Shown here: in pieces, positions 27,810 through 38,367 of the stretch
How positions within the stretch are numbered: the stretch's first letter is position 1
Layout of the letters: each line of letters starts with the position of its first letter
Assembly: GCA_003151815.1 (NCBI GenBank)
Contig: PLYN01000012.1
Location: forward strand, 183 to 64,182
DNA length: 64,000 nt
DNA from: Bacteroidota bacterium
GTDB lineage: Bacteria > Bacteroidota > Bacteroidia > 2-12-FULL-35-15
Direction of reading: 5' to 3'
Translations under genes and position numbers: made by a program
The notes under the pieces: model-generated
What the model was told of the DNA's origin: nothing
The model's database searches: none
What the model saw: the letters and a program-made list of their open reading frames with translations, nothing else

Positions 27810-28784
27810 ATGTCAAGAATACTCACCGGAGTTCAAAGCACCAACATTCCTCACCTTGGAAATATTTTAGGTGCGATCATGCCTGCTATCGAACTGTCAA
27901 AACAAACAGACAACCAATCACTTTTTTTTATTGCCGACCTGCATTCTTTAACGACCATTAAAGATGCAGAACTTTTAAAAAACAGTTCGGATGCCGTTGC
28001 TGCCACTTGGTTGGCATTTGGATTTGATACCGATAAAAATATTTTTTATCGTCAGAGTGACGTAACGGAAGTATGCGAACTAGCTTGGTATTTGAATTGT
28101 TTTACGCCTTTCCCTATGTTGGCAAACGCACATTCTTTCAAAGATAAATCAGAACGTCTGGCGGATGTGAATGCAGGTTTATTTACCTATCCTGTTTTGA
28201 TGGCAGCAGACATACTATTGTACGATGCCAACTTTATTCCGGTTGGTAAGGATCAGCTTCAACACATTGAAATGACAAGAGATATCGCTGAAAAATTTAA
28301 TTTTAAATATGGTGATGTGTTTATAATTCCACAAGCAAAAATAGATGAGAACGTAATGCTTGTTCCCGGCATCGATGGACAAAAAATGAGTAAATCATTA
28401 CATAACTTTATTAATATTTTTTTACCTGAAAAAGAATTAAAAAAAATAATATTGAGCATTGTTACCGATGCTACTCCTTTGGAAGCGCCAAAAAATCCGG
28501 ATGCTTGCAATGTATTTGCTTTGTATAAATTAATTGCAAGCGAACAGCAAATTGAAGAAATGCGTGAAAATTATTTACGTGGCGGTTATGGTTATGGTCA
28601 TTCGAAAAATGCCTTATATGAATTGATCTTAGATAAATTTGCATCTCAACGCACTACCTATAATTATTTTATGAATAACCGTGAAGAGCTGGATGCAAAA
28701 CTTCAGGTCGGCGCGAATAAAGCTAGAATTATTGCAAAAGCAACACTTAAAAGAGTACGCGAGAAGTTAGGGTTTAAGAACTAA
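27810..28784 (+). CDS. trpS: Tryptophan--tRNA ligase
   Basis: TGVQST..PHLGN (HIGH), YPVLMAADIL, VGKDQ and KMSKS. Confidence 0.98.
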   Translation: MSRILTGVQSTNIPHLGNILGAIMPAIELSKQTDNQSLFFIADLHSLTTIKDAELLKNSSDAVAATWLAFGFDTDKNIFYRQSDVTEVCELAWYLNCFTPFPMLANAHSFKDKSERLADVNAGLFTYPVLMAADILLYDANFIPVGKDQLQHIEMTRDIAEKFNFKYGDVFIIPQAKIDENVMLVPGIDGQKMSKSLHNFINIFLPEKELKKIILSIVTDATPLEAPKNPDACNVFALYKLIASEQQIEEMRENYLRGGYGYGHSKNALYELILDKFASQRTTYNYFMNNREELDAKLQVGANKARIIAKATLKRVREKLGFKN

Positions 28785-28823
28785 AAAAGAAAGAGTCAAA
28801 TCCTAAAATAATCCAATCACTAT

Positions 28824-29279
28824 TTACTGAAATAGCAATTTGAAGGAAGACAAAAAAATTGACCAGAACAGAACAGAAGAAAACATATAAATTAAAATCT
28901 TCTGCTTATTTTTAAAATACCTGACTGCAATGTAACATCCTAAAGGAATAGAAATTAAAAAAGGCGTAAGGATTGCTATTCCTAATAAGCCGAAACGGTG
29001 TTTTACCTTGATAATAATTTTATTTTTTTTCGTAAATATTTTTTTGGTGCTTAGTCTTAAATCTTTAATTTGATTTTTGTCTTTTATCTTTTTTACACTC
29101 GCAATTAATTTATCACTCAAAAAAACAAAAAAAATAACACCGGTAAATCCTCCCAAAGTCGTTATAGTAACTACTTTAAAAAAAGGAAAGCCAAAAGCCA
29201 ATGCAAGCGGAATACCCCCAAAAACAAATTTAACGGTACTCAACAAAAAAACTGAAATAATTTCCCACCTTGAATCCAT
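28824..29279 (-). CDS. Conserved membrane protein (small multidrug-export-like)
   Basis: Several hydrophobic helices and GIAILTPFLISIPLG. Confidence 0.75.
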   Translation of the reverse strand: MDSRWEIISVFLLSTVKFVFGGIPLALAFGFPFFKVVTITTLGGFTGVIFFVFLSDKLIASVKKIKDKNQIKDLRLSTKKIFTKKNKIIIKVKHRFGLLGIAILTPFLISIPLGCYIAVRYFKNKQKILIYMFSSVLFWSIFLSSFKLLFQ

Positions 29280-29287
29280 ACAATAAA

Positions 29288-30208
29288 TTATAATTTTCCG
29301 CTAATCCACTTAACAATGGATGGCAAAGTATTTTTTTTTATTTTTAAATATACGCAATCTTTTGCACCAAAGTTCCTGTTGAAGTTTGCTATCCCTTCAA
29401 TATCTGAACCTTCAAAATCTAACAATTCAATATGTTGAGCATACCTTCTAATAATTTCATCTATCATTAAATACATTGCCCCTGTAGATTTCCCCTCAGA
29501 ATTAGCACTTCCAAATGAAAAATAAATTTTATTTTTTGATTTCATAAAGTATGCAGATGCGATGATTTCATTTTTTTTATTTGTTACTCCAATTGTAATA
29601 CCACAATCATTTTTAATAGCGGTTTTCATTAAATTTTCTATGGTAAGATAATGTCCTGAATTCAATCTTGCTACACGGCTACCTATGTTAGTTTGATATA
29701 ATTCAGCAATCTTTTCAGGAGAAACATTTTCAATAATTACATTATTATTTTTTTCGGCTCTTCTTAAGTTTTTATGTGCTGATCGATTATAGGATTGTTT
29801 AATTATTTCGTAGGATTGAATTAAATTTAATATTTGTACAACACGTTTAGAAATTGTAAAATCGACTCTGTTAAACGGTATATTTTCTTTTAAATGAAAA
29901 TCAATTAACTTAATAGTATTGGGAATAGTGTCAAAAAAATTATTTACCAGTTCTTCTGAAAGTATTTTTTTTGAATAAATGCCCATACATCGTATGGAGA
30001 GAGGTTGCAGGAGATATTTTATATTGTATTTTGATTTTATTGACAAAGGAAATACCGCTTCGTAATCATCCAATATGATCGCCGACCAATTTTCGCATGC
30101 AATATCTAAATACCATGAATAAGCGGATACCGAGTGATTGAAGGATTGATCTATACAATCATCCCACTTTTTTTTATCAATATTTTTATGTTCAACAAAT
30201 TGTATCAT
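29288..30208 (-). CDS. GNAT/FemAB-like acyltransferase of a polysaccharide cluster
   Basis: IDKKKWD, AYSWYLDI, LDFEGS..EGIANFNRNFGA. Confidence 0.85.
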   Translation of the reverse strand: MIQFVEHKNIDKKKWDDCIDQSFNHSVSAYSWYLDIACENWSAIILDDYEAVFPLSIKSKYNIKYLLQPLSIRCMGIYSKKILSEELVNNFFDTIPNTIKLIDFHLKENIPFNRVDFTISKRVVQILNLIQSYEIIKQSYNRSAHKNLRRAEKNNNVIIENVSPEKIAELYQTNIGSRVARLNSGHYLTIENLMKTAIKNDCGITIGVTNKKNEIIASAYFMKSKNKIYFSFGSANSEGKSTGAMYLMIDEIIRRYAQHIELLDFEGSDIEGIANFNRNFGAKDCVYLKIKKNTLPSIVKWISGKL

Positions 30209-31200
30209 TCTTTATTTTTAAACATTTTTGTAAATGTTGTAAAATTATGCTTCCCTTTATTCTTCTCCACAAACTCATCAATTTTTCGAATTGAATAACG
30301 GGATAAGGCTTTTGGATGTCCAATTATCACCATGTGTTCAAATTTTTTTTTCATTAATTTCCTCAAAACTTTTTCTAAAAGATATGCATTGTATCCATCA
30401 ACAGCAACGGGGTTAACAGTATATTTGGTTAATAGTTTTTTACGATAGCCGGGTGCAGGCATTGCAGTTCCATCGCCAAGAGGTTTATGTAAATAAGGAT
30501 TTTTACGTCCTAATAAAAATAACCTCCAAAAAAATAAAGGTGAATTTCTGATTGAACTAATTGGCAATTCAATGAAAACTCCATTTTCCACTTCTTTTGT
30601 CGGCTCATCATCAAAATGGTAAATTGCTTTATCCGGTGCATTTCTGAAATCATATGAATACTGATCGGAAGTATAAAAACCATTTTTAAATACACTACTA
30701 TCAAGTGTTATTCCGTTATCAATAAAAGCCTTTTTAATTTTATTGAAAGGCTGCAAACACCACCCTCCTGCACGAAAAGAAAAAATTGTTTTTGAAGTAA
30801 TATCGGTCAAAACTTTTTTATACCGATAAACAATATCGGCAATTTCAGTTTCATTAAAATCAGCAAGTTTATATCGACTCACATCAATTATCCATCGCTC
30901 TCCATTGTAAGAACTATCCTCCCAGTGCGGATGAATATGCAACTGAATATCATGACCTGAATCGGATAAATATTTCACTTGTTTCGTTATTGCGCTATAA
31001 TCTTTTTCAAGTTGTGGGTATTGTTTTCTGAATTCATTTAATTTTAAAATAAATCCACAATCAACGAAAAAACAAAAACGAACATTATGTTTTTCTGCAA
31101 TACGAATCAGTTCTGAAGTTGGATAAATAATACATCTCTCGACTGTACCATGGTTTTTACCAAAGTAAATTTCATAATCAAGAGTTATAAAAATGTTCAT
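30205..31200 (-). CDS. Polysaccharide deacetylase family protein
   Basis: ITLDYE, HDIQLHIHPHW and SFRAGGW (NodB-like). Confidence 0.85.
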   Translation of the reverse strand: MNIFITLDYEIYFGKNHGTVERCIIYPTSELIRIAEKHNVRFCFFVDCGFILKLNEFRKQYPQLEKDYSAITKQVKYLSDSGHDIQLHIHPHWEDSSYNGERWIIDVSRYKLADFNETEIADIVYRYKKVLTDITSKTIFSFRAGGWCLQPFNKIKKAFIDNGITLDSSVFKNGFYTSDQYSYDFRNAPDKAIYHFDDEPTKEVENGVFIELPISSIRNSPLFFWRLFLLGRKNPYLHKPLGDGTAMPAPGYRKKLLTKYTVNPVAVDGYNAYLLEKVLRKLMKKKFEHMVIIGHPKALSRYSIRKIDEFVEKNKGKHNFTTFTKMFKNKE

Positions 31201-31207
31201 TAAAAAA

Positions 31208-32014
31208 TTACTTAAAAGGTATAAACTGTTTTATTGATGATTTGATAAAATTTATCAAATCGAAGGAATATAAATTTTCTGCATTATTCATTTTTATATC
31301 TTCTTGAATAAGTTCATACGCTTTATCCAGCCTGATCATGGAAAAAGTGCTATCATTAATTTTATAAATATTCATAGCACCATTGTCAATAAAAAGTTTG
31401 TGCAAATTATTCAATGTGCTTACTATTCCATTTTTTTTTGCAAACGTCAATACTTCTCTTTTTTGCGCTTTTCCATCATCAGTATAATTAATATTTATTT
31501 TTTTGTATTTTCTATATTTTACATTTTCCTTCTCTTCGACATAATGAGCAAATGTAAAACTGTGCTGAATATCAATATCTATAAGTAACATCAAAGCTCT
31601 GTGCTCATTCAAAAAAGCAAAAACTGAATCATCACCAAAGGTGCTTTTATTATTTATTTTCAAAAGTTCGTCAGCAAATTTTCCAAAAACAAAAAATGAA
31701 TGTAAAGGATCAGCTGTTCTTGAAAAATCCTTTCTTTTAAACACTAGTTTTGACAAAGTACCTGTTTGCGGAATCGTATTTTTTTTGTCGAATTTATCTC
31801 CCGACATTAATTTATCATTGAAAGCAGGAAATAAAAGAGTTCCTTCAGTTAACTTATTTTTAAAGCTGTCAACAAATAAGTCTGCATTAAAAATTTCTCC
31901 ATTTGTTAAAGTTGTATAAGCAAGTTTAGTAATGTCAGATGCTATAAGTAAAGTTTCATTTTTATTTATTTGAAGTTTGTTAACTATTTGCTGATATGGT
32001 ATATACGTTTTCAT
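31208..32014 (-). CDS. AAC(3)/YokD family acyltransferase
   Basis: GTLLFPAF, RTADPLHSF, FGDDS.F and TFAHYVEE. Confidence 0.88.
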   Translation of the reverse strand: MKTYIPYQQIVNKLQINKNETLLIASDITKLAYTTLTNGEIFNADLFVDSFKNKLTEGTLLFPAFNDKLMSGDKFDKKNTIPQTGTLSKLVFKRKDFSRTADPLHSFFVFGKFADELLKINNKSTFGDDSVFAFLNEHRALMLLIDIDIQHSFTFAHYVEEKENVKYRKYKKININYTDDGKAQKREVLTFAKKNGIVSTLNNLHKLFIDNGAMNIYKINDSTFSMIRLDKAYELIQEDIKMNNAENLYSFDLINFIKSSIKQFIPFK

Positions 32015-32025
32015 TAAATAACAAG

Positions 32026-33708
32026 TTAATACTCTTTTAAAATTAATGTAACATACGAAGGAATGGCATATGTTTTACTGGCATCCCAAGTAAAATTATT
32101 TTCTTTTTCAATAAAACCACTTCGCTTAAAAAAGTCGTAACATGGTTTATTTTTTTCTGTCGCAATAAACGTAGCATTTACTATTTTACAAAATTTATTT
32201 TTCGCATGTTCAATTGCTGCATAAAGCATAATTTCTTCTGCTTTTCTACCAATAACTCTGCAACTTAAAACAAAATCAGTTATTGTAGCTTGCCCATCTT
32301 TGCAGGTAACTCCAATGATTCCTGTTAAACCGGCATCGCCAAATTTATCTGTAACAGAAAAAGCAAACATACTATTTTCGTCTGATGAAATCCAGGTAAT
32401 TAATTCCCGTTCTGTAAACCTACGTGTTTGTAAATTCAACTGATTGGTTTTATTAAGCAATTGCAAGACACGTTGAAAATTTCCTTCATTAGTTTTTTCG
32501 ATTGTTATTTTTATATCAATTGATTTTAACCATTCTTCGAGGTTTGAAATTGTTTTTATATTTTCTGTACGTTGTTTTTCTTCAGCATATAATTTAGTTC
32601 TGTATTTATCTTCTTTTGTTGAAATAAAATTATTAAAACAATCAAGGTTAAGTAAAAACTGCCTGTATAACAATGGATCAGAAGGCATTTCAGGGACAAA
32701 AATTTCTGGCAAAGCACTTTTAACCCATTCGCGTTCGTGAGCATTATCATCAATAAAAACAATTGAATCTAAGCCAAGATTTAACTCGTTTGCAAGCTCA
32801 ACAATATTTTTTGCTTTATCCTCCCAATTAATTCTCCACGAAACAAAATCTTTTTTTACAAGCACCATTTCCGATTTTTTTTCAATAGCAAGTAAAGCTA
32901 CACGCTCTTCATTCTTACTCACAATTGCTAAGAGTACACCTTTATTTTTTAGCATTTTCAATGCAAATTGAAAATCCTTATAGGCTTCACCTTCCGGATC
33001 ATGTCCTCCGAGTTTTATATTTTCATACCCAATATCACCTACGATACCTCCCCATAAAGTATTATCAAGATCAACAATAATTAGTTTTTTATTTTTTCCT
33101 TGAATTGATTTGATAGAAGACATAATATCCTTTGCAGCATCTGCAAACACCATATTATTAAAAGGAGTTTTATTTAAATACCATAGTTTAGGATTGTAAG
33201 CATTATTGCTGGCACGCATATTCCATTTATTACTATCAAGTAAATATATGTTCGGCTGATCCCAAAATTTTTCTGCAAGAAGTAAATTGATTTGGGCAAG
33301 TACATTAATAATTCCTGTATCGGGTTTGGTAGTTAGTATTCCATAATTTTGTTGAGTGGTATCAATACTCCAAGTCGCTACAAAAGTTAGTTTTACTCTT
33401 GAGCTGGCATTAATTATTAATGAAGTAAATTCCTCTACTTCTTTTTTGAGATCAGCAAAATCAAAATTTTCATAATTAAGTAGTGCAGCAAAATTTTTTA
33501 ATATTCTTTCAGGCAATGTCCAAACAACAGCAAAATCAGATTGGTGTTTCCAGCATTCTAAATTAGCATCAATTAATGTATGGTGAACTTGATTAAATGG
33601 AGCTATAAAACATTTTACAGGCTGTTCTATAGAATTATTTGATAGATATCCAGCCAAATTGTTAATTGAAAAATCAGATATTAAAACTCCTTTTATTCCT
33701 GATGTCAT
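32026..33708 (-). CDS. FkbH-like HAD-IIIC phosphatase/glyceryl-ACP synthase
   Basis: DLDNTLWGG (DxDxT), SKNE, FIDDN..ER, KTNQLN, DKFGD.G and LSCRVIGR. Confidence 0.93.
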   Translation of the reverse strand: MTSGIKGVLISDFSINNLAGYLSNNSIEQPVKCFIAPFNQVHHTLIDANLECWKHQSDFAVVWTLPERILKNFAALLNYENFDFADLKKEVEEFTSLIINASSRVKLTFVATWSIDTTQQNYGILTTKPDTGIINVLAQINLLLAEKFWDQPNIYLLDSNKWNMRASNNAYNPKLWYLNKTPFNNMVFADAAKDIMSSIKSIQGKNKKLIIVDLDNTLWGGIVGDIGYENIKLGGHDPEGEAYKDFQFALKMLKNKGVLLAIVSKNEERVALLAIEKKSEMVLVKKDFVSWRINWEDKAKNIVELANELNLGLDSIVFIDDNAHEREWVKSALPEIFVPEMPSDPLLYRQFLLNLDCFNNFISTKEDKYRTKLYAEEKQRTENIKTISNLEEWLKSIDIKITIEKTNEGNFQRVLQLLNKTNQLNLQTRRFTERELITWISSDENSMFAFSVTDKFGDAGLTGIIGVTCKDGQATITDFVLSCRVIGRKAEEIMLYAAIEHAKNKFCKIVNATFIATEKNKPCYDFFKRSGFIEKENNFTWDASKTYAIPSYVTLILKEY

Positions 33709-34007
33709 TTTAAATTTATTTCAATATATTTAATTAACGTCCCAATATTTTTCAAATCAGATTCTTTTTTTTCTATTAAATCTTGAATTCTCAAAGTAGA
33801 ATTATTGCCCATATATTTTTGCAATTTTTGTTCAACAATGACCAAAAAATAAACCAGATTCATACTATCAAGCTTACCTTTCTCAGTATATCCTGATCTG
33901 GAAAAAAGAACTTCCTCTATTTTTTTTTCAAGACGGTTTTCTAAGTCTTGCGAAAAATTAAATTCTTCGATAGCATCAAAAATTATTATAGATATCTTAT
34001 CTTTCAT
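33705..34007 (-). CDS. Acyl carrier protein
   Basis: LDSMNLV phosphopantetheine site. The ATG at 34007 overlaps the upstream TGA (ATGA). Confidence 0.8.
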   Translation of the reverse strand: MKDKISIIIFDAIEEFNFSQDLENRLEKKIEEVLFSRSGYTEKGKLDSMNLVYFLVIVEQKLQKYMGNNSTLRIQDLIEKKESDLKNIGTLIKYIEINLK

Positions 34008-35317
34008 TTTGTTTCTATACATGCGTAAATTACCATCTCTTCGTACACCGATTTCCAACCCTTCCAGATCTTACGATCGTTCAACGTATCATTATGCCAA
34101 AGACTAATAAAAACACCATTTACAGCTCTCACCTCATCTATCAACGATTTTATTTTAATGATCCCATCCGGTGGTTGAATTTTCATTCTGTATTTCAACG
34201 TGCCTTCCATCACAGCAAAAGGGTGTATTTTTAACTTCGTTTCCAATTCTGTATCCAGATCATAAAAATTAAAAGGAGTACAAATACTTGCCCTGAAACC
34301 TACCTGAGAAGCATAGCCCATGGTGTAATCATCAGTAATGTCATTATCAATTAAATTACGGTATGTTTCGGGCATCCTTAATTTTAAAAAATGTTGACGA
34401 CTTTTTGTTACATCGCGATGCAAAACATTCGACAAACGGCCTATCTCTTTTTTTAATTGTGCTTTGCTGCTATTAGAGCCATAAGAAGGATGAATACCCA
34501 CCTGGGCATAATCAGCCAACATTTTTATAAGCGATTGAAATTTTATACTTTCAATCGGTAAATTTTTATCGTTTGGTCCATAATCGCCCAGTAAGAAAAA
34601 ATAAATGCTTTTAAATTTATATTTTTTAAATATTTCCAATTGAAAATCATAGGTGTCGTAAGGGTCTTTTTGCATACCCAACAGCACGCGCGTTCGTTCT
34701 AGAATTTCCGAAAAATCACCTTCCGATATTGATTTAAAATATCCTCCAAGGCTTCGTGTAAAGCCCTTTTCGCGATAAGCATACGCATTATCAATATCAA
34801 GGGTAGAAATAAATTCAAATTTTTTTTCCGGAAAAAAGATAGACGGATACCTTTTCTGAATTAATTCTTTCATCAACAATGCCCAACTATTTACAATAGG
34901 CTTATGCAAAAAATCGTTCATGAAAGCTAAACTATCTTTAGCATCAAAACGATCATGTTCATCGCGTATGTGTGGCAAATATTCCTCGTAACGACTCACT
35001 AAATAAAAGCTTGCAGCGAATACATCAAAAGGCAATGCAGATAATTTACCTGTTGCAAAAAACACTTTGTTATTATTGAAATCAAAAACAGAAATATTCT
35101 GTTCGTTGATTCCGGTTTCAAATAATAAATTACGTGAGATGAAAAAAAGTTCGTCGGCTACTGGATTATACGTGTAACTTAATTTTGCACCTTCATATCG
35201 TTTTAATTCCTCCGCATCTGTAGTTAAACTAAAATCAATACCAAGAATATCTTTAAACATCAAGTTAAAAATATACTTATTACGATGCGTGATTTTATGG
35301 GTATATACGAGTAGCAT
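34004..35317 (-). CDS. Polysaccharide deacetylase family protein (DUF7033-like N-terminus)
   Basis: FYLVSRYEEY, TLDID, GIHPSY, SRQHFL and GVFISLWHN. Start placed at MLLVYTH. Confidence 0.85.
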   Translation of the reverse strand: MLLVYTHKITHRNKYIFNLMFKDILGIDFSLTTDAEELKRYEGAKLSYTYNPVADELFFISRNLLFETGINEQNISVFDFNNNKVFFATGKLSALPFDVFAASFYLVSRYEEYLPHIRDEHDRFDAKDSLAFMNDFLHKPIVNSWALLMKELIQKRYPSIFFPEKKFEFISTLDIDNAYAYREKGFTRSLGGYFKSISEGDFSEILERTRVLLGMQKDPYDTYDFQLEIFKKYKFKSIYFFLLGDYGPNDKNLPIESIKFQSLIKMLADYAQVGIHPSYGSNSSKAQLKKEIGRLSNVLHRDVTKSRQHFLKLRMPETYRNLIDNDITDDYTMGYASQVGFRASICTPFNFYDLDTELETKLKIHPFAVMEGTLKYRMKIQPPDGIIKIKSLIDEVRAVNGVFISLWHNDTLNDRKIWKGWKSVYEEMVIYACIETK

Positions 35318-35339
35318 TGTCAATTGTCAATCGTTAATT

Positions 35340-36488
35340 TTATTTAATATACTTCAGAATTGCATCACAAATAAATTCTGCCGCTTTGCCATCGCCAAAC
35401 AAATTAGGGTATTTCAATTTTTTTGTTATTGAGAAATCAGAATACGCTTTCATAATTTTTGATTCGTCGGCATCCACAATTTTTGCTGAACCACAGTTTA
35501 CCAATTCAACCCACTCCGTCTCTGAACGCAATATAATGCAGGTTTTTTGAAAAAAGAAAGCTTCTTTTTGTACACCACCGGAATCTGTAATTACCAAACT
35601 TGAATTTTTTTCTAAAGCGATCATCTCTAAAAAAGAAACAGGTGGCGTTATTTTTATATATTCATTTGTTTGAATTATATTATACAATTCAGCTGAAAGG
35701 TTTTGTGATAATAACTTTGCAGTACGCGGATGTAATGGAATAATAATTTTTATTTTATTTTCCTTTGCAATTTTATTGATTGCACTAAACAATGCATTTA
35801 ACCGAATAGGTTCATCTGTATTGTTATTGCGATGAATAGTAGCCAAAATAAAAGGAACATTTTCTAAATTATACTCCTTTAGAATATTTGTTTTTTGTTC
35901 TGCAATTTTCGAAAAATAAAGACTATTATCATACATCACATCACCACAATGAAAAATTTTCGGATTATCAAATGTATAAGGTGGCAAGTTATTTTCTTTA
36001 AAACCTTCTTTCAGCAAATTATCATAACCTGATTTTGTTGGAGAAAATAAAAGTGTTGAGACGTGATCACACATGATGCGATTGATCTCTTCTGGCATCG
36101 CTTTATTGAATGAACGTAAGCCCGCTTCTATATGTATCACAGGAACTTGAATTTTTGATGCTGCAATAGCGCCGGCCAATGTTGAATTGGTATCACCATA
36201 TAATACTATACAATTCGGTTTTTCTTTTATTAAGATATCTTCAATTCCAACTATCATGGAAGCCGTTTGTTTACCATGCGCTCCGGAGCCTGAATTTAAA
36301 TTATAATCAGGATGCGGAATATCCAATTCATCAAAAAATACCTGCGACATATTTTCATCGTAATGTTGTCCGGTATGAACAATTACTTCATGAATTTTAT
36401 CCGAGTAGTTATTTTTTATAGCCCTGCTTAATGCTGCTGCTTTGATTATTTGCGGGCGAGCCCCAATGATTGTTAAAAGTTTAAGCAT
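35340..36488 (-). CDS. wecB: UDP-N-acetylglucosamine 2-epimerase (non-hydrolysing)
   Basis: IGARPQIIK, HTGQHYD, YGDTNST, HIEAGLRS and TDSGGVQKEA. Confidence 0.96.
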   Translation of the reverse strand: MLKLLTIIGARPQIIKAAALSRAIKNNYSDKIHEVIVHTGQHYDENMSQVFFDELDIPHPDYNLNSGSGAHGKQTASMIVGIEDILIKEKPNCIVLYGDTNSTLAGAIAASKIQVPVIHIEAGLRSFNKAMPEEINRIMCDHVSTLLFSPTKSGYDNLLKEGFKENNLPPYTFDNPKIFHCGDVMYDNSLYFSKIAEQKTNILKEYNLENVPFILATIHRNNNTDEPIRLNALFSAINKIAKENKIKIIIPLHPRTAKLLSQNLSAELYNIIQTNEYIKITPPVSFLEMIALEKNSSLVITDSGGVQKEAFFFQKTCIILRSETEWVELVNCGSAKIVDADESKIMKAYSDFSITKKLKYPNLFGDGKAAEFICDAILKYIK

Positions 36489-36576
36489 TGTTAGTTATCA
36501 GTTATTAGCGAATAGTTATTATAAAATGGAAATTGATTTCCATTTTATCTTATCAGCACATCGTCTCATTAGCACA

Positions 36577-37275
36577 TCAGAACACTCCTTCATCAACAAA
36601 GCTATAAAAACCATTTTCAGTAATTATTAAATGGTCGAGCAAAGCTATTTCCATTATTTTTCCTGCTTCTTTTATATTTTTAGTGATCTTCAGATCAGCT
36701 TCACTTGGTTTTAAATTTCCTGAAGGATGATTATGACATATGATAATGGAACTTGCACCATTATCAACAGCCGTTTTAAATATTATTTTTGTATCAACCA
36801 CTGTCCCTGCGGTACCTCCGCGACTGATCAATTCTTTTTTAATTACTGAATTAGCTCTGTTGAGCATCAACAACCAAAATTCCTCATGCGGCAGATCCAT
36901 CATCAAAGGCTTCATGATTTCAAATACATCCTTACTGGAAGTTATTTTTTCGCGCTTTATAACTTCGGTATTTTTTCTCCTGCGACCCAATTCCAATGCG
37001 GCAATAATACTAATTGCTTTTGCATCGCCAACACCTTTAAACCTGTTCAACTCCTGAACAGATAGCTTTCCTAATTCATTTAAATTATTACCAACGCTCG
37101 CTAAAATACGTTTAGAAAGTTCAACTGCTGTTTCATCCCTGCTTCCTGAACCAATTAAAATTGCAACAAGCTCAGCCTCAGTTAACACATGTCTTCCTTT
37201 ATCAATAAGCTTTTCACGAGGCCGATCTTCTTCCGCCCAAAACTTTATTCCTGATGATTGTTTGTAATCTTCCAT
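36577..37275 (-). CDS. radC: RadC family JAB-domain protein
   Basis: DRPREKL, GVGDAKA, HEEFW and HNHPSGNLKPSEAD. Start placed at MEDYK. Confidence 0.95.
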   Translation of the reverse strand: MEDYKQSSGIKFWAEEDRPREKLIDKGRHVLTEAELVAILIGSGSRDETAVELSKRILASVGNNLNELGKLSVQELNRFKGVGDAKAISIIAALELGRRRKNTEVIKREKITSSKDVFEIMKPLMMDLPHEEFWLLMLNRANSVIKKELISRGGTAGTVVDTKIIFKTAVDNGASSIIICHNHPSGNLKPSEADLKITKNIKEAGKIMEIALLDHLIITENGFYSFVDEGVF

Positions 37276-37310
37276 AGTAATTATAATTCTTAAAGATAAC
37301 AAAAAATCAT

Positions 37311-37340
37311 AAAAAAATGCCCCAAATTAAGGGGCATCTT
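37311..37340 (-). terminator. Intrinsic terminator after the oxidoreductase gene
   Basis: Minus strand ATGCCCC-ttaattt-GGGGCAT-TTTTTT. Confidence 0.75.
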
Positions 37341-37374
37341 CAAATTTTCAAATTGATTGATTTTCAAATTATTT

Positions 37375-38367
37375 TCATTTATCCAGATTTACAATTATTC
37401 TTCCTTTCAATTTACCGGCCATCATCTCATCAACACATGCACTCAATTCATTCAGCCCTTTCTCAACACAAACTTCCTCAAGATTATCTAACTTCCATTC
37501 TTTAGCCAATTTAGCCCAAACAATATTTCTAATATTTTTCGGACATTTTTGAGAATCAATCCCTATTAAAGAAATCCCTTTCAAGATGAAAGGAAAAACT
37601 GTTAGATCTAATACAGGCGAAGAAGCCATTCCACAACACGTTACAACACCTAATGCCTGAGTAGATTTTATCATGTTATCTAAAATTACACCGCCAACAA
37701 CATCAATTCCACCGGCGAATCTTGATTTTAAAAACGGACGAGCATCTTTTACGCCAAATTCATCTCTTGAAATGATCTCTTTTGCACCTAATTTTTTTAG
37801 ATAATCTTCTTCTTCTTTTTTACCTGATATGGCAACAACATCATAACCCAACTTGGATAATATCGCAACACTCATTGAACCAACGCCACCTGTAGCTCCT
37901 GATACAGCAATTTTTCCATCAGCAGGTTTTACCTGCTCCGACAATTTAAGTATCGACATCCCTGCTGTTAATCCCGCTGTTCCTATCATCATTGACTCTT
38001 TTAATGATAATCCGTCAGGAAGTAATACCGGCCACTCAGCCGGAACACGAACATATTGGCCAAATCCGCCATCTGTACCCATTCCAAAATCATAACCGGT
38101 AACAACAACTTTATCACCTGCCTTAAATTTATCAGAACTCGATTCTTCCACAACGCCTGCAGCATCAATACCGGGAGTATGAGGATACTTTGGCGTTATA
38201 CCTTTTGCACCGGTTGAAGATAAAGCATCTTTATAATTTAAAGAAGAGTAATTAACTTTTATTAATACTTCTCCTGCCGGAAGACTATCAATTGTTCTTG
38301 TTTTTATACTTCTGATATATTTACCATCTTGTTCTTCTATCACAAATGCTTTGAATTCTTTTGCCAT
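37375..38367 (-). CDS. YhdH/YhfP family quinone oxidoreductase (acryloyl-CoA reductase-like MDR)
   Basis: YSSLNYKDAL, PGIDAAG, GTAGLTA and GATGGVGS. Confidence 0.92.
   Translation of the reverse strand: MAKEFKAFVIEEQDGKYIRSIKTRTIDSLPAGEVLIKVNYSSLNYKDALSSTGAKGITPKYPHTPGIDAAGVVEESSSDKFKAGDKVVVTGYDFGMGTDGGFGQYVRVPAEWPVLLPDGLSLKESMMIGTAGLTAGMSILKLSEQVKPADGKIAVSGATGGVGSMSVAILSKLGYDVVAISGKKEEEDYLKKLGAKEIISRDEFGVKDARPFLKSRFAGGIDVVGGVILDNMIKSTQALGVVTCCGMASSPVLDLTVFPFILKGISLIGIDSQKCPKNIRNIVWAKLAKEWKLDNLEEVCVEKGLNELSACVDEMMAGKLKGRIIVNLDK

Follow-up and report, generated by a model that had tools for sequence, protein, structure and literature searches.

What could an acyl carrier protein (ACP) and a glyceryl-loading enzyme be doing in an operon whose surroundings encode no polyketide synthase? 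The question is raised by a 64,000-nucleotide stretch of contig PLYN01000012.1 (assembly GCA_003151815.1), hereafter the window, from a peat Bacteroidota bacterium whose genome is assembled to 2.5 Mb and 76.6% completeness; among the sequencing runs listed, the stretch occurs in peat metagenome DNA runs only and in no RNA run. Eight genes packed as an operon occupy positions 36488-28824 on its minus strand, in the order wecB-like gene, VimE-like deacetylase, ACP, FkbH, AAC(3)-fold protein, second CE4-like deacetylase, VimA/FemAB-like transferase and small membrane protein. Three of them form the cassette considered here: a stand-alone ACP (P0001, 100 aa, 33705..34007), identified by motif and fold; an FkbH-type bifunctional phosphatase/glyceryl transferase (P0003, 560 aa, 32026..33708), identified by TIGR01686, HAD-IIIC and FkbH_N; and an AAC(3)-fold N-acyltransferase of a non-resistance clade (P0002, 268 aa, 31208..32014), identified by PF02522 and fold and proposed here as a glyceroyl transferase.

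The operon is best read as one that modifies the N-acylation of a nucleotide-linked amino sugar on its way to a surface glycan. Judging from sequence comparisons, we think on balance that FkbH would make glyceryl-ACP and that the AAC(3)-fold enzyme would put the glyceroyl group on an amine freed by a deacetylase. The original prediction for this DNA had proposed such a deacetylate-then-reacylate route with glyceryl-ACP as donor, and comparative genomics fits it in three respects: the AAC(3)-fold protein belongs to a distinct clade, FkbH and ACP genes are contiguous with clade members in other phyla, and the cassette takes part in a gene swap within the genus. The component families are known; the novelty lies in their combination, in which an AAC(3)-fold transferase within a Vim-type operon would be supplied by a glyceryl-carrier system.

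A gene swap within the genus

The strongest single argument comes from a complete genome of the same genus, G363. Its operon matches that of the window in wecB (72% identity), VimE (78.5%), the second deacetylase (70%), VimA (36%) and the membrane protein (52%), and between VimE and the second deacetylase it carries a canonical AAC(3)-family gene, the 298 aa product of which scores 183 bits against PF02522 and is 24% identical to P0002. There is no ACP in this VimE-type operon and no FkbH match in the G363 genome. The N-acyltransferase slot is conserved, and ACP-FkbH, together with a member of the carrier-associated clade, has replaced its occupant in the window's genome; because of this swap we take the trio to act together, with the AAC(3)-fold enzyme as the transferase. 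In two more distant members of the class the core consists of just radC-VimE-VimA. The conserved core is a VimE-like and a VimA-like gene, and in this genus the epimerase, the second deacetylase and the AAC(3)-fold N-acyltransferase have been gained.

Proteins of the cassette

P0002 scores 79 bits against PF02522 (gathering cut-off 25), and its AlphaFold2 (AF2) model, with a pLDDT of 93, gives TM scores of 0.72-0.76 to BA2930, YokD, FrbF and AAC(3)-III at 13-17% identity. Two invariant residues, H157 and E160, line up with the H-x-x-E of YokD. In fold and in its His-x-x-Glu motif P0002 thereby agrees with AAC(3)-II/III/IV/VI, BA2930 of Bacillus anthracis, YokD of Bacillus subtilis and FrbF, which bears out the predicted AAC(3)-family membership. 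P0002 nevertheless differs from these N-acetyltransferases in its low identity to them, in its failure to reach the resistance equivalog model (NF033082, AAC_3; 33.6 bits, cut-off 270) and in belonging to a clade of its own, which a quick maximum-likelihood tree sets apart from canonical PF02522 proteins with an SH-aLRT value of 99. Sub-branches within the clade match the type of loader, FkbH or AMP-binding, and whereas the known AAC(3) enzymes are stand-alone and dependent on coenzyme A (CoA), the P0002 clade is genomically tied to carrier proteins. The clade amounts to about 295 clusters (50% identity) at E 1e-30 or better among 1.84 billion representatives; close relatives of P0002 number 44 in a 5.8-billion-protein collection, and none occurs at E 1e-30 or better in 400 sampled Bacteroidota genomes, the same-genus genome included. 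A predicted complex of P0002 (alignment A1) and the ACP (A2) reached a score of 0.31, the mark being 0.32, and is not counted as evidence either way.

The carrier had been recognised in the original prediction by its LDS motif, and the identification stands. The pattern G-x-L-D-S-x-x-L-V is invariant across 11 homologues, appearing in P0001 as GKLDS with Ser48 as the predicted phosphopantetheine site; a profile of the homologues matches ACPs in the PDB at E 0.01, aligned on the DSL motif; and the AF2 model (pLDDT 86) has four helices, with Ser48 opening a long second helix (48-66). Nearly all of the top 50 Foldseek matches are carrier proteins, at E-values (0.6-3) that are weak, as is usual for such small folds. 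By motif and predicted fold P0001 is accordingly classed as an acyl carrier protein. The PP-binding model PF00550 goes unmatched across the whole assembly, even by the housekeeping acpP, which probably reflects the incompleteness of the assembly.

The FkbH-like assignment of 33708-32026 is equally well founded. P0003 scores 303.1 bits against TIGR01686 (cut-off 146.65), 70 bits against the HAD-IIIC model TIGR01681 (cut-off 35.75) and 45.8 bits against FkbH_N, PF21211 (cut-off 27), giving an architecture of an N-terminal FkbH_N domain, a HAD-IIIC phosphatase core and a C-terminal domain; the N-terminal and HAD part matches PDB entry 3SLR from Bacteroides fragilis at E 4.5e-46. Every defining motif is present: the DxDxT motif (D213-L-D215-N-T217), K298, D320/D321 and S482-C483-R484 are invariant in 17 FkbH homologues. 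The roles of these residues, as HAD motif I and glyceryl-thioester cysteine, are reportedly known from published work on OzmB. From family membership and the intact motifs we infer that P0003 loads glycerate from 1,3-bisphosphoglycerate onto the ACP.

Distribution of the AAC(3)-fold clade

We scanned 185,579 species genomes and recovered 80 loci of the AAC(3) clade, whose neighbouring open reading frames (ORFs) were clustered and the clusters annotated with Pfam. At 23 of the 46 loci flanked by 5 kb or more on either side, a carrier protein or carrier-loading enzyme lies within 7 kb, FkbH being present in 10 of these 46 and an AMP-binding enzyme in 9; these co-occurrence counts are descriptive, come without a statistical test and derive from genomes that are related to one another. 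The base rate of FkbH is 25 in 400 sampled Bacteroidota genomes. Among five genomes without FkbH near the AAC(3) locus, four encode it elsewhere, and a VimE-like gene is likewise encoded elsewhere in all five checked genomes that have an AAC(3)-VimA pair and no nearby VimE.

Two settings stand out. In the first, clade members are held in nonulosonic-acid clusters (NeuB, CMP-sugar synthetase, PseB/PseC-like) of Lysinibacillus, Brevibacillus, Virgibacillus, many Lachnospiraceae, Treponema, Elusimicrobia and Campylobacter jejuni. Here the clade gene almost always adjoins a DUF4910/DUF2172 gene, to which it is fused in four loci, and its frequent companions are FkbH with a PP-binding ACP and a VOC-family (Glyoxalase_4) gene, or an AMP-binding enzyme. 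The AAC(3)-fold, DUF4910, FkbH and ACP genes are contiguous and co-directional in Lysinibacillus antri and in one Lachnospiraceae genome, and members of the trio also lie near one another in loci of C. jejuni, Treponema and Elusimicrobia. In the second setting, found in Bacteroidota, the clade gene lies beside VimA-like and/or VimE-like genes, together with ACP-FkbH, with an AMP-binding enzyme and an 88 aa carrier-like protein, or with no loader nearby; one lineage has ACP-FkbH plus a VOC-family gene and a TylF-type methyltransferase. Because AAC(3)-fold, FkbH and carrier genes recur as neighbours in several phyla, the trio arrangement is not a matter of chance, and the co-occurrence of the three families, which the original prediction had named as a check, is seen.

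Several other arrangements were encountered. Four single proteins of about 690-830 aa combine an AAC(3)-fold domain, a DUF4910/DUF2172 (Cj1295-like) domain and HTH_47 (L066:2119-4209, L072, L075:9995-12484 and L078, from Oscillospiraceae, Erysipelotrichaceae, Lachnospiraceae and Clostridium), that of L075 additionally carrying a MaoC dehydratase domain; such fusions are Rosetta-stone links between the transferase and the protein for glyceric-acid-modified pseudaminic acid of C. jejuni. In Lachnospiraceae loci L052, L054, L057 and L060, the AAC(3)-fold gene lies beside a GH25 muramidase-domain protein, a PP-binding ACP, a SIR2 deacetylase and a 137 aa protein that clusters with MaoC-containing fusions, and nonulosonic-acid genes are absent within 7 kb; this is a third setting. 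At two Bacteroidota loci without an AAC(3)-fold gene (L114, G344:C1; L116, G304:C84), the gene after ACP-FkbH encodes a MaoC-dehydratase/SDR fusion, and in L114 an LbH acyltransferase gene lies upstream; this suggests that glyceryl-ACP is there converted to another three-carbon acyl group and handled by a different transferase.

A further block, in Crocinitomicaceae and related metagenome-assembled genomes (MAGs; L032, L034, L035, L037, L040, L051, L055, L059), consists of ribosomal protein L31, a WG-repeat protein, a 260 aa protein, the AAC(3)-fold gene and an enoyl-CoA hydratase, with no carrier, loader, VimA or VimE nearby; the same 260 aa protein precedes ACP-FkbH in L011, L018, L020 and L023. 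Two of the contigs (L051, L055) are near-identical and yet labelled 'Chryseobacterium gleum' and 'Candidatus Kuenenia stuttgartiensis'; several further Flavobacteriales-type contigs are labelled C. gleum, and these look like mis-binned or mislabelled MAG records.

Operon layout and flanking genes

Gaps between genes are at most 16 nt throughout the operon, and stop and start codons overlap as ATGA at three junctions (VimE-like/ACP, ACP/FkbH and second deacetylase/VimA-like). The three cassette genes lie on the minus strand where the original prediction had placed them, but the translational coupling it claimed for the whole trio applies in part: ACP and FkbH overlap, while the AAC(3)-fold gene follows FkbH after a tightly packed gap of 11 nt, without overlap. 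G+C content is 29% in the operon and roughly 33-36% nearby. A promoter and terminator scan of 28300-37600 returned no more sites than shuffled sequence, so the transcript is not defined by the scan. As predicted, ketosynthases and any other machinery for polyketide or non-ribosomal synthesis are missing from the window; the assembly's one weak ketosynthase match lies on another contig. Condensation and lipid-synthesis genes are absent near the cassette. Because the window also contains no methyltransferase, VOC-family gene, dehydratase or reductase, a plain glyceroyl group is the expected product.

The flanking genes agree in outline with the prediction of a wecB upstream, a deacetylase on either side of the trio and a GNAT downstream, and are homologues of VimE and VimA, a kinship that the prediction had not noticed. 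First in the operon is a wecB-like non-hydrolysing UDP-GlcNAc 2-epimerase (382 aa, 35340..36488), scoring 307 bits against TIGR00236 (cut-off 210) and 341 bits against PF02350. The deacetylase upstream of the cassette is a VimE-like DUF7033 sugar N-deacetylase (P0006, 439 aa, 34004..35323) that scores 121 bits against PF23019 (DUF7033) and 164.6 bits against the VimE model NF053580 over profile positions 87-426 of 431; with a cut-off of 440 for that model, P0006 is best described from its sequence as a VimE homologue and not, by score, an equivalog. The assembly has no second VimE-like gene. Members of the family turn up in 92 of 400 further Bacteroidota genomes sampled and span most families of the class; in one family 20 of 21 genomes have them. 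VimE-like matches in three Flavobacteriales MAGs (L122, L125 and L126, in G407, G408 and G406) each contain one in-frame stop (TAA or TAG), which could mark a pseudogene, an assembly error or a mis-joined match.

Downstream of the cassette, the second polysaccharide-deacetylase-like (CE4-like) protein (P0004, 331 aa, 30205..31200) has a weak TIGR03006 match (E 1.6e-4), and a search of its sequence against the PDB returned chance matches only. Its atlas feature hits, at 0.97-0.98, fall in Bacteroidota clusters with PF01522 in 12-49% of their members, and orthologues occupy the same slot in G363 (70% identity) and L026 (46%). The predicted GNAT is a GNAT-related gene, as claimed, and more specifically a VimA-like FemAB-family/Acetyltransf_6 protein (P0005, 306 aa, 29288..30208), matching TIGR03019 at E 1e-5 and PF13480 at E 0.002, and is probably an aminoacyl transferase; VimA has been reported in the same FemAB family (PMC7468200). 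Homologues of P0005 directly follow an AAC(3)-fold or VimE-like gene in 24 loci; the relatives compared with P0005 are all 24-38% identical to it. The last gene encodes a small membrane protein (151 aa, 28824..29279) with a PF06695 score of 26 bits, below the cut-off; its homologues (cluster 'u157') end the same operon in L010, L012, L014, L026, L050, L061, L090 and G363.

Directly upstream of the operon lies radC (36577-37302), as it does in three distant relatives (L026, L120 and L121); in G363 a 240 aa ORF holds that position. The adjacency of radC to the VimE-type operon is conserved, with no obvious functional reason.

Relation to known pathways and a proposed route

FkbH/OzmB-type enzymes reportedly form glyceryl-ACP with a stand-alone ACP, as in FkbH/FkbJ of FK520, OzmB/OzmE of oxazolomycin and Tmn16/ChlD1 of tetronate biosynthesis. 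The window shares with these systems the same three-part enzyme (FkbH_N, HAD-IIIC with DxDxT, C-terminal Ser-Cys-Arg) and a small discrete carrier encoded next to it. It differs in that, the one weak ketosynthase match apart, the assembled genome contains no polyketide synthase, ketosynthase or tetronate enzyme; in that the carrier is a divergent 100 aa ACP outside Pfam PP-binding; and in that the presumed fate of the glyceryl group is an amide on a sugar, not chain extension.

Sugars with such a group occur elsewhere. Tannerella forsythia makes an N-glyceroyl pseudaminic acid (Pse5Am7Gra, 7-N-glyceroyl), the genetic basis of which was stated to be unknown in 2017 (PMC5378307); a glycerate amide on a surface amino sugar of a Bacteroidota is the type of product predicted here. 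For C. jejuni 11168 a glyceric-acid-derived sugar product is chemically established. In that species cj1302 encodes an FkbH domain and cj1301 carries an epimerase annotation (PMC7099621), and Cj1295 (DUF4910/DUF2172), the sole gene there tested genetically in the open literature, is needed for glyceric-acid-modified pseudaminic acid. C. jejuni GB55 carries a clade member, 36% identical to P0002, between a Cj1295-like gene and ACP-methyltransferase-FkbH (on the opposite strand), beside pseB/pseC. The C. jejuni system nevertheless differs from ours in its acceptor, a nonulosonic acid, in having a DUF4910/DUF2172 partner in place of CE4 deacetylases and VimA, and in its methyltransferase and VOC-family genes, absent here. 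Within the open literature (subscription journals lay outside our scope) no paper was found linking FkbH to sugar acylation.

The other half of the operon resembles the Wbp/Vim pathway of Porphyromonas gingivalis and T. forsythia, in which VimE is proposed to strip the Wbp product of its 2-N-acetyl group and VimA to attach serine or glycine, the resulting diamino uronic acid derivative being the sugar that links type IX cargo to lipopolysaccharide (PMC7468200). As there, a VimE-homologous DUF7033/CE4 deacetylase and a VimA-like FemAB transferase are encoded together, and the proposed route shares the logic of taking an N-acetyl group off and putting another acyl group on. The window's genome has at least 61 matches to the type IX C-terminal domain (Por_Secre_tail), so that here too a FemAB-type transferase is encoded with a deacetylase in an organism bearing type IX secretion. 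In contrast to Wbp/Vim, the window's operon adds wecB, the second deacetylase, the AAC(3)-fold acyltransferase and the glyceryl-carrier system, and its link to cargo anchoring is putative. With its pairs of deacetylases and transferases the operon would be suited to a di-N-acetyl sugar like the Wbp product; a mono-amino sugar supplied by the adjacent epimerase, or the aminoacyl amine itself, are possible alternative acceptors. The assembly has two DegT aminotransferases, one PseC/PglE-like and one WecE-like, both in ordinary O-antigen/capsule-type clusters, and the one G363 DegT neighbourhood scanned fully has an SDR instead of a GFO/IDH/MocA oxidoreductase of the WbpB type.

The route would run as follows. 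The HAD domain of FkbH (Asp213/Asp215) would dephosphorylate 1,3-bisphosphoglycerate, and the glycerate, held as a thioester on Cys483, would pass to the phosphopantetheine arm on Ser48 of the ACP. A CE4-type deacetylase, as the gene neighbourhood suggests, would uncover an amine of a UDP-linked amino sugar. Through His157/Glu160 the AAC(3)-fold enzyme would then transfer glyceroyl from glyceryl-ACP to give an N-glyceroyl sugar, a step for which the conserved neighbourhood and the natural swap argue. By analogy with the Vim pathway, the VimA-like enzyme may acylate the other freed amine, probably with an amino acid.

Alternative explanations

Several findings weigh against this reading. P0001 has no Pfam or NCBIfam match at E <= 0.01 and does not reach the PP-binding model (PF00550), and the solved relatives of the AAC(3) fold all use or bind acyl-CoA. 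At L026 the same operon contains a clade member (41% identical) with no ACP-FkbH beside it; about half of the well-flanked clade loci have no carrier or loader within 7 kb; and FkbH is entirely without a match in one Crocinitomicaceae genome with a clade member (G404). Elsewhere in the Bacteroidota, FkbH-ACP pairs adjoin LbH or GNAT acyltransferases or a MaoC-SDR fusion, not an AAC(3) gene. On the acceptor side, no classical WbpB/WbpE/WbpD set was found in the 76.6%-complete assembly or in the G363 aminotransferase neighbourhoods, with no specific Wbp models run. Because half of the loci are loader-free and one genome is without FkbH, the clade as a whole need not depend on an ACP. The CoA binding of every solved AAC(3)-fold enzyme, together with the GNAT or LbH partners at other FkbH-ACP loci, also lends substance to a rather unlikely alternative in which glyceryl-ACP is made as proposed and consumed by another enzyme, likeliest the VimA-like FemAB/GNAT protein, while the AAC(3)-fold enzyme takes acetyl-CoA or another acyl-CoA. 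The VimA-like gene is 36% identical to its G363 orthologue against 70-78% for its neighbours, and may thus have changed specificity, and it follows the AAC(3)-fold gene in most loci of the FkbH-type sub-branch; a closer relative of P0005, sought as a means of telling whether specificity changed with the cassette, was not found above 38% identity, and the search was uninformative. Yet the nonulosonic-acid loci of Bacillota, Treponema and Campylobacter pair FkbH-ACP with an AAC(3)-fold gene and no VimA-like gene, the AAC(3) slot is the one altered when ACP-FkbH arrived, and it is the AAC(3) sub-branches that follow loader type.

A different division of labour, which we regard as unlikely, keeps glyceryl-ACP as the donor for the AAC(3)-fold enzyme and makes the acceptor the alpha-amine of the amino acid attached by VimA, giving an N-glyceroyl-aminoacyl amide. 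In Bacteroidota no pairing is tighter or commoner than that of an AAC(3)-fold gene followed directly by a VimA-like gene; the two often overlap, with no deacetylase in the vicinity, and if the canonical enzyme of G363 uses acetyl-CoA, re-acetylating a deacetylated sugar amine would presumably be futile, whereas capping an aminoacyl group would not. Capping would, however, block the amide link through which type IX cargo is attached in the known pathway (PMC7468200); the five checked AAC(3)-VimA genomes all encode a VimE-like deacetylase elsewhere; and the nonulosonic-acid loci manage without a VimA-like gene, their DUF4910/DUF2172 partner being a peptidase-like protein that fits a deacylase. 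That the cassette yields no N-acyl sugar at all, but for instance an O-glyceroyl ester, a small metabolite or a lipid head group derived from glycerate, with the operon position incidental, is improbable: Wbp diamino-sugar genes were not found, which would favour it, but the cassette genes are packed with overlaps inside the operon, ketosynthase, condensation and lipid-synthesis genes are absent nearby, the trio recurs within amino-sugar pathways of other phyla, and the solved members of the AAC(3) fold are N-acetyltransferases. Chance placement of an aminoglycoside resistance determinant would account for the PF02522 match and for public annotations reading 'aminoglycoside 3-N-acetyltransferase', and is highly improbable; the resistance enzyme was rejected as a candidate on its 33.6 of 270 bits, its 13-17% identity to solved AAC(3) enzymes and a linkage to sugar pathways that is conserved across phyla, in a context free of mobile elements. 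Glyceroyl transfer by the AAC(3)-fold enzyme to a deacetylated sugar amine remains the reading we favour.

Implications

Taken at its widest, the glyceroyl-transfer reading would make the clade the first ACP-dependent N-acyltransferases of the AAC(3) fold, diversifying the Vim-type sugar that tethers type IX cargo in Flavobacteriia-type bacteria, with sister species differing by a cassette swap in whether they carry an acetyl or other CoA-derived group or a glyceroyl group, and would explain N-glyceroyl groups on both pseudaminic and legionaminic acids. As a whole this joint proposal is tentative, and we think it possible but doubtful. In Tannerella and Campylobacter, surface sugars carry N-glyceroyl and related three-carbon acyl groups, which shape their antigenicity and their recognition by phages, and the trio, if it acts as proposed, would supply a compact three-gene explanation for groups of this type. 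It would also give a new type of donor to a fold known mainly from antibiotic resistance, so that many annotations as 'aminoglycoside acetyltransferase' would be corrected, and would show that a Vim-type operon, related to the anchoring of type IX cargo, varies between sister species. For that variation the window's genome and its same-genus relative form a ready-made natural comparison.

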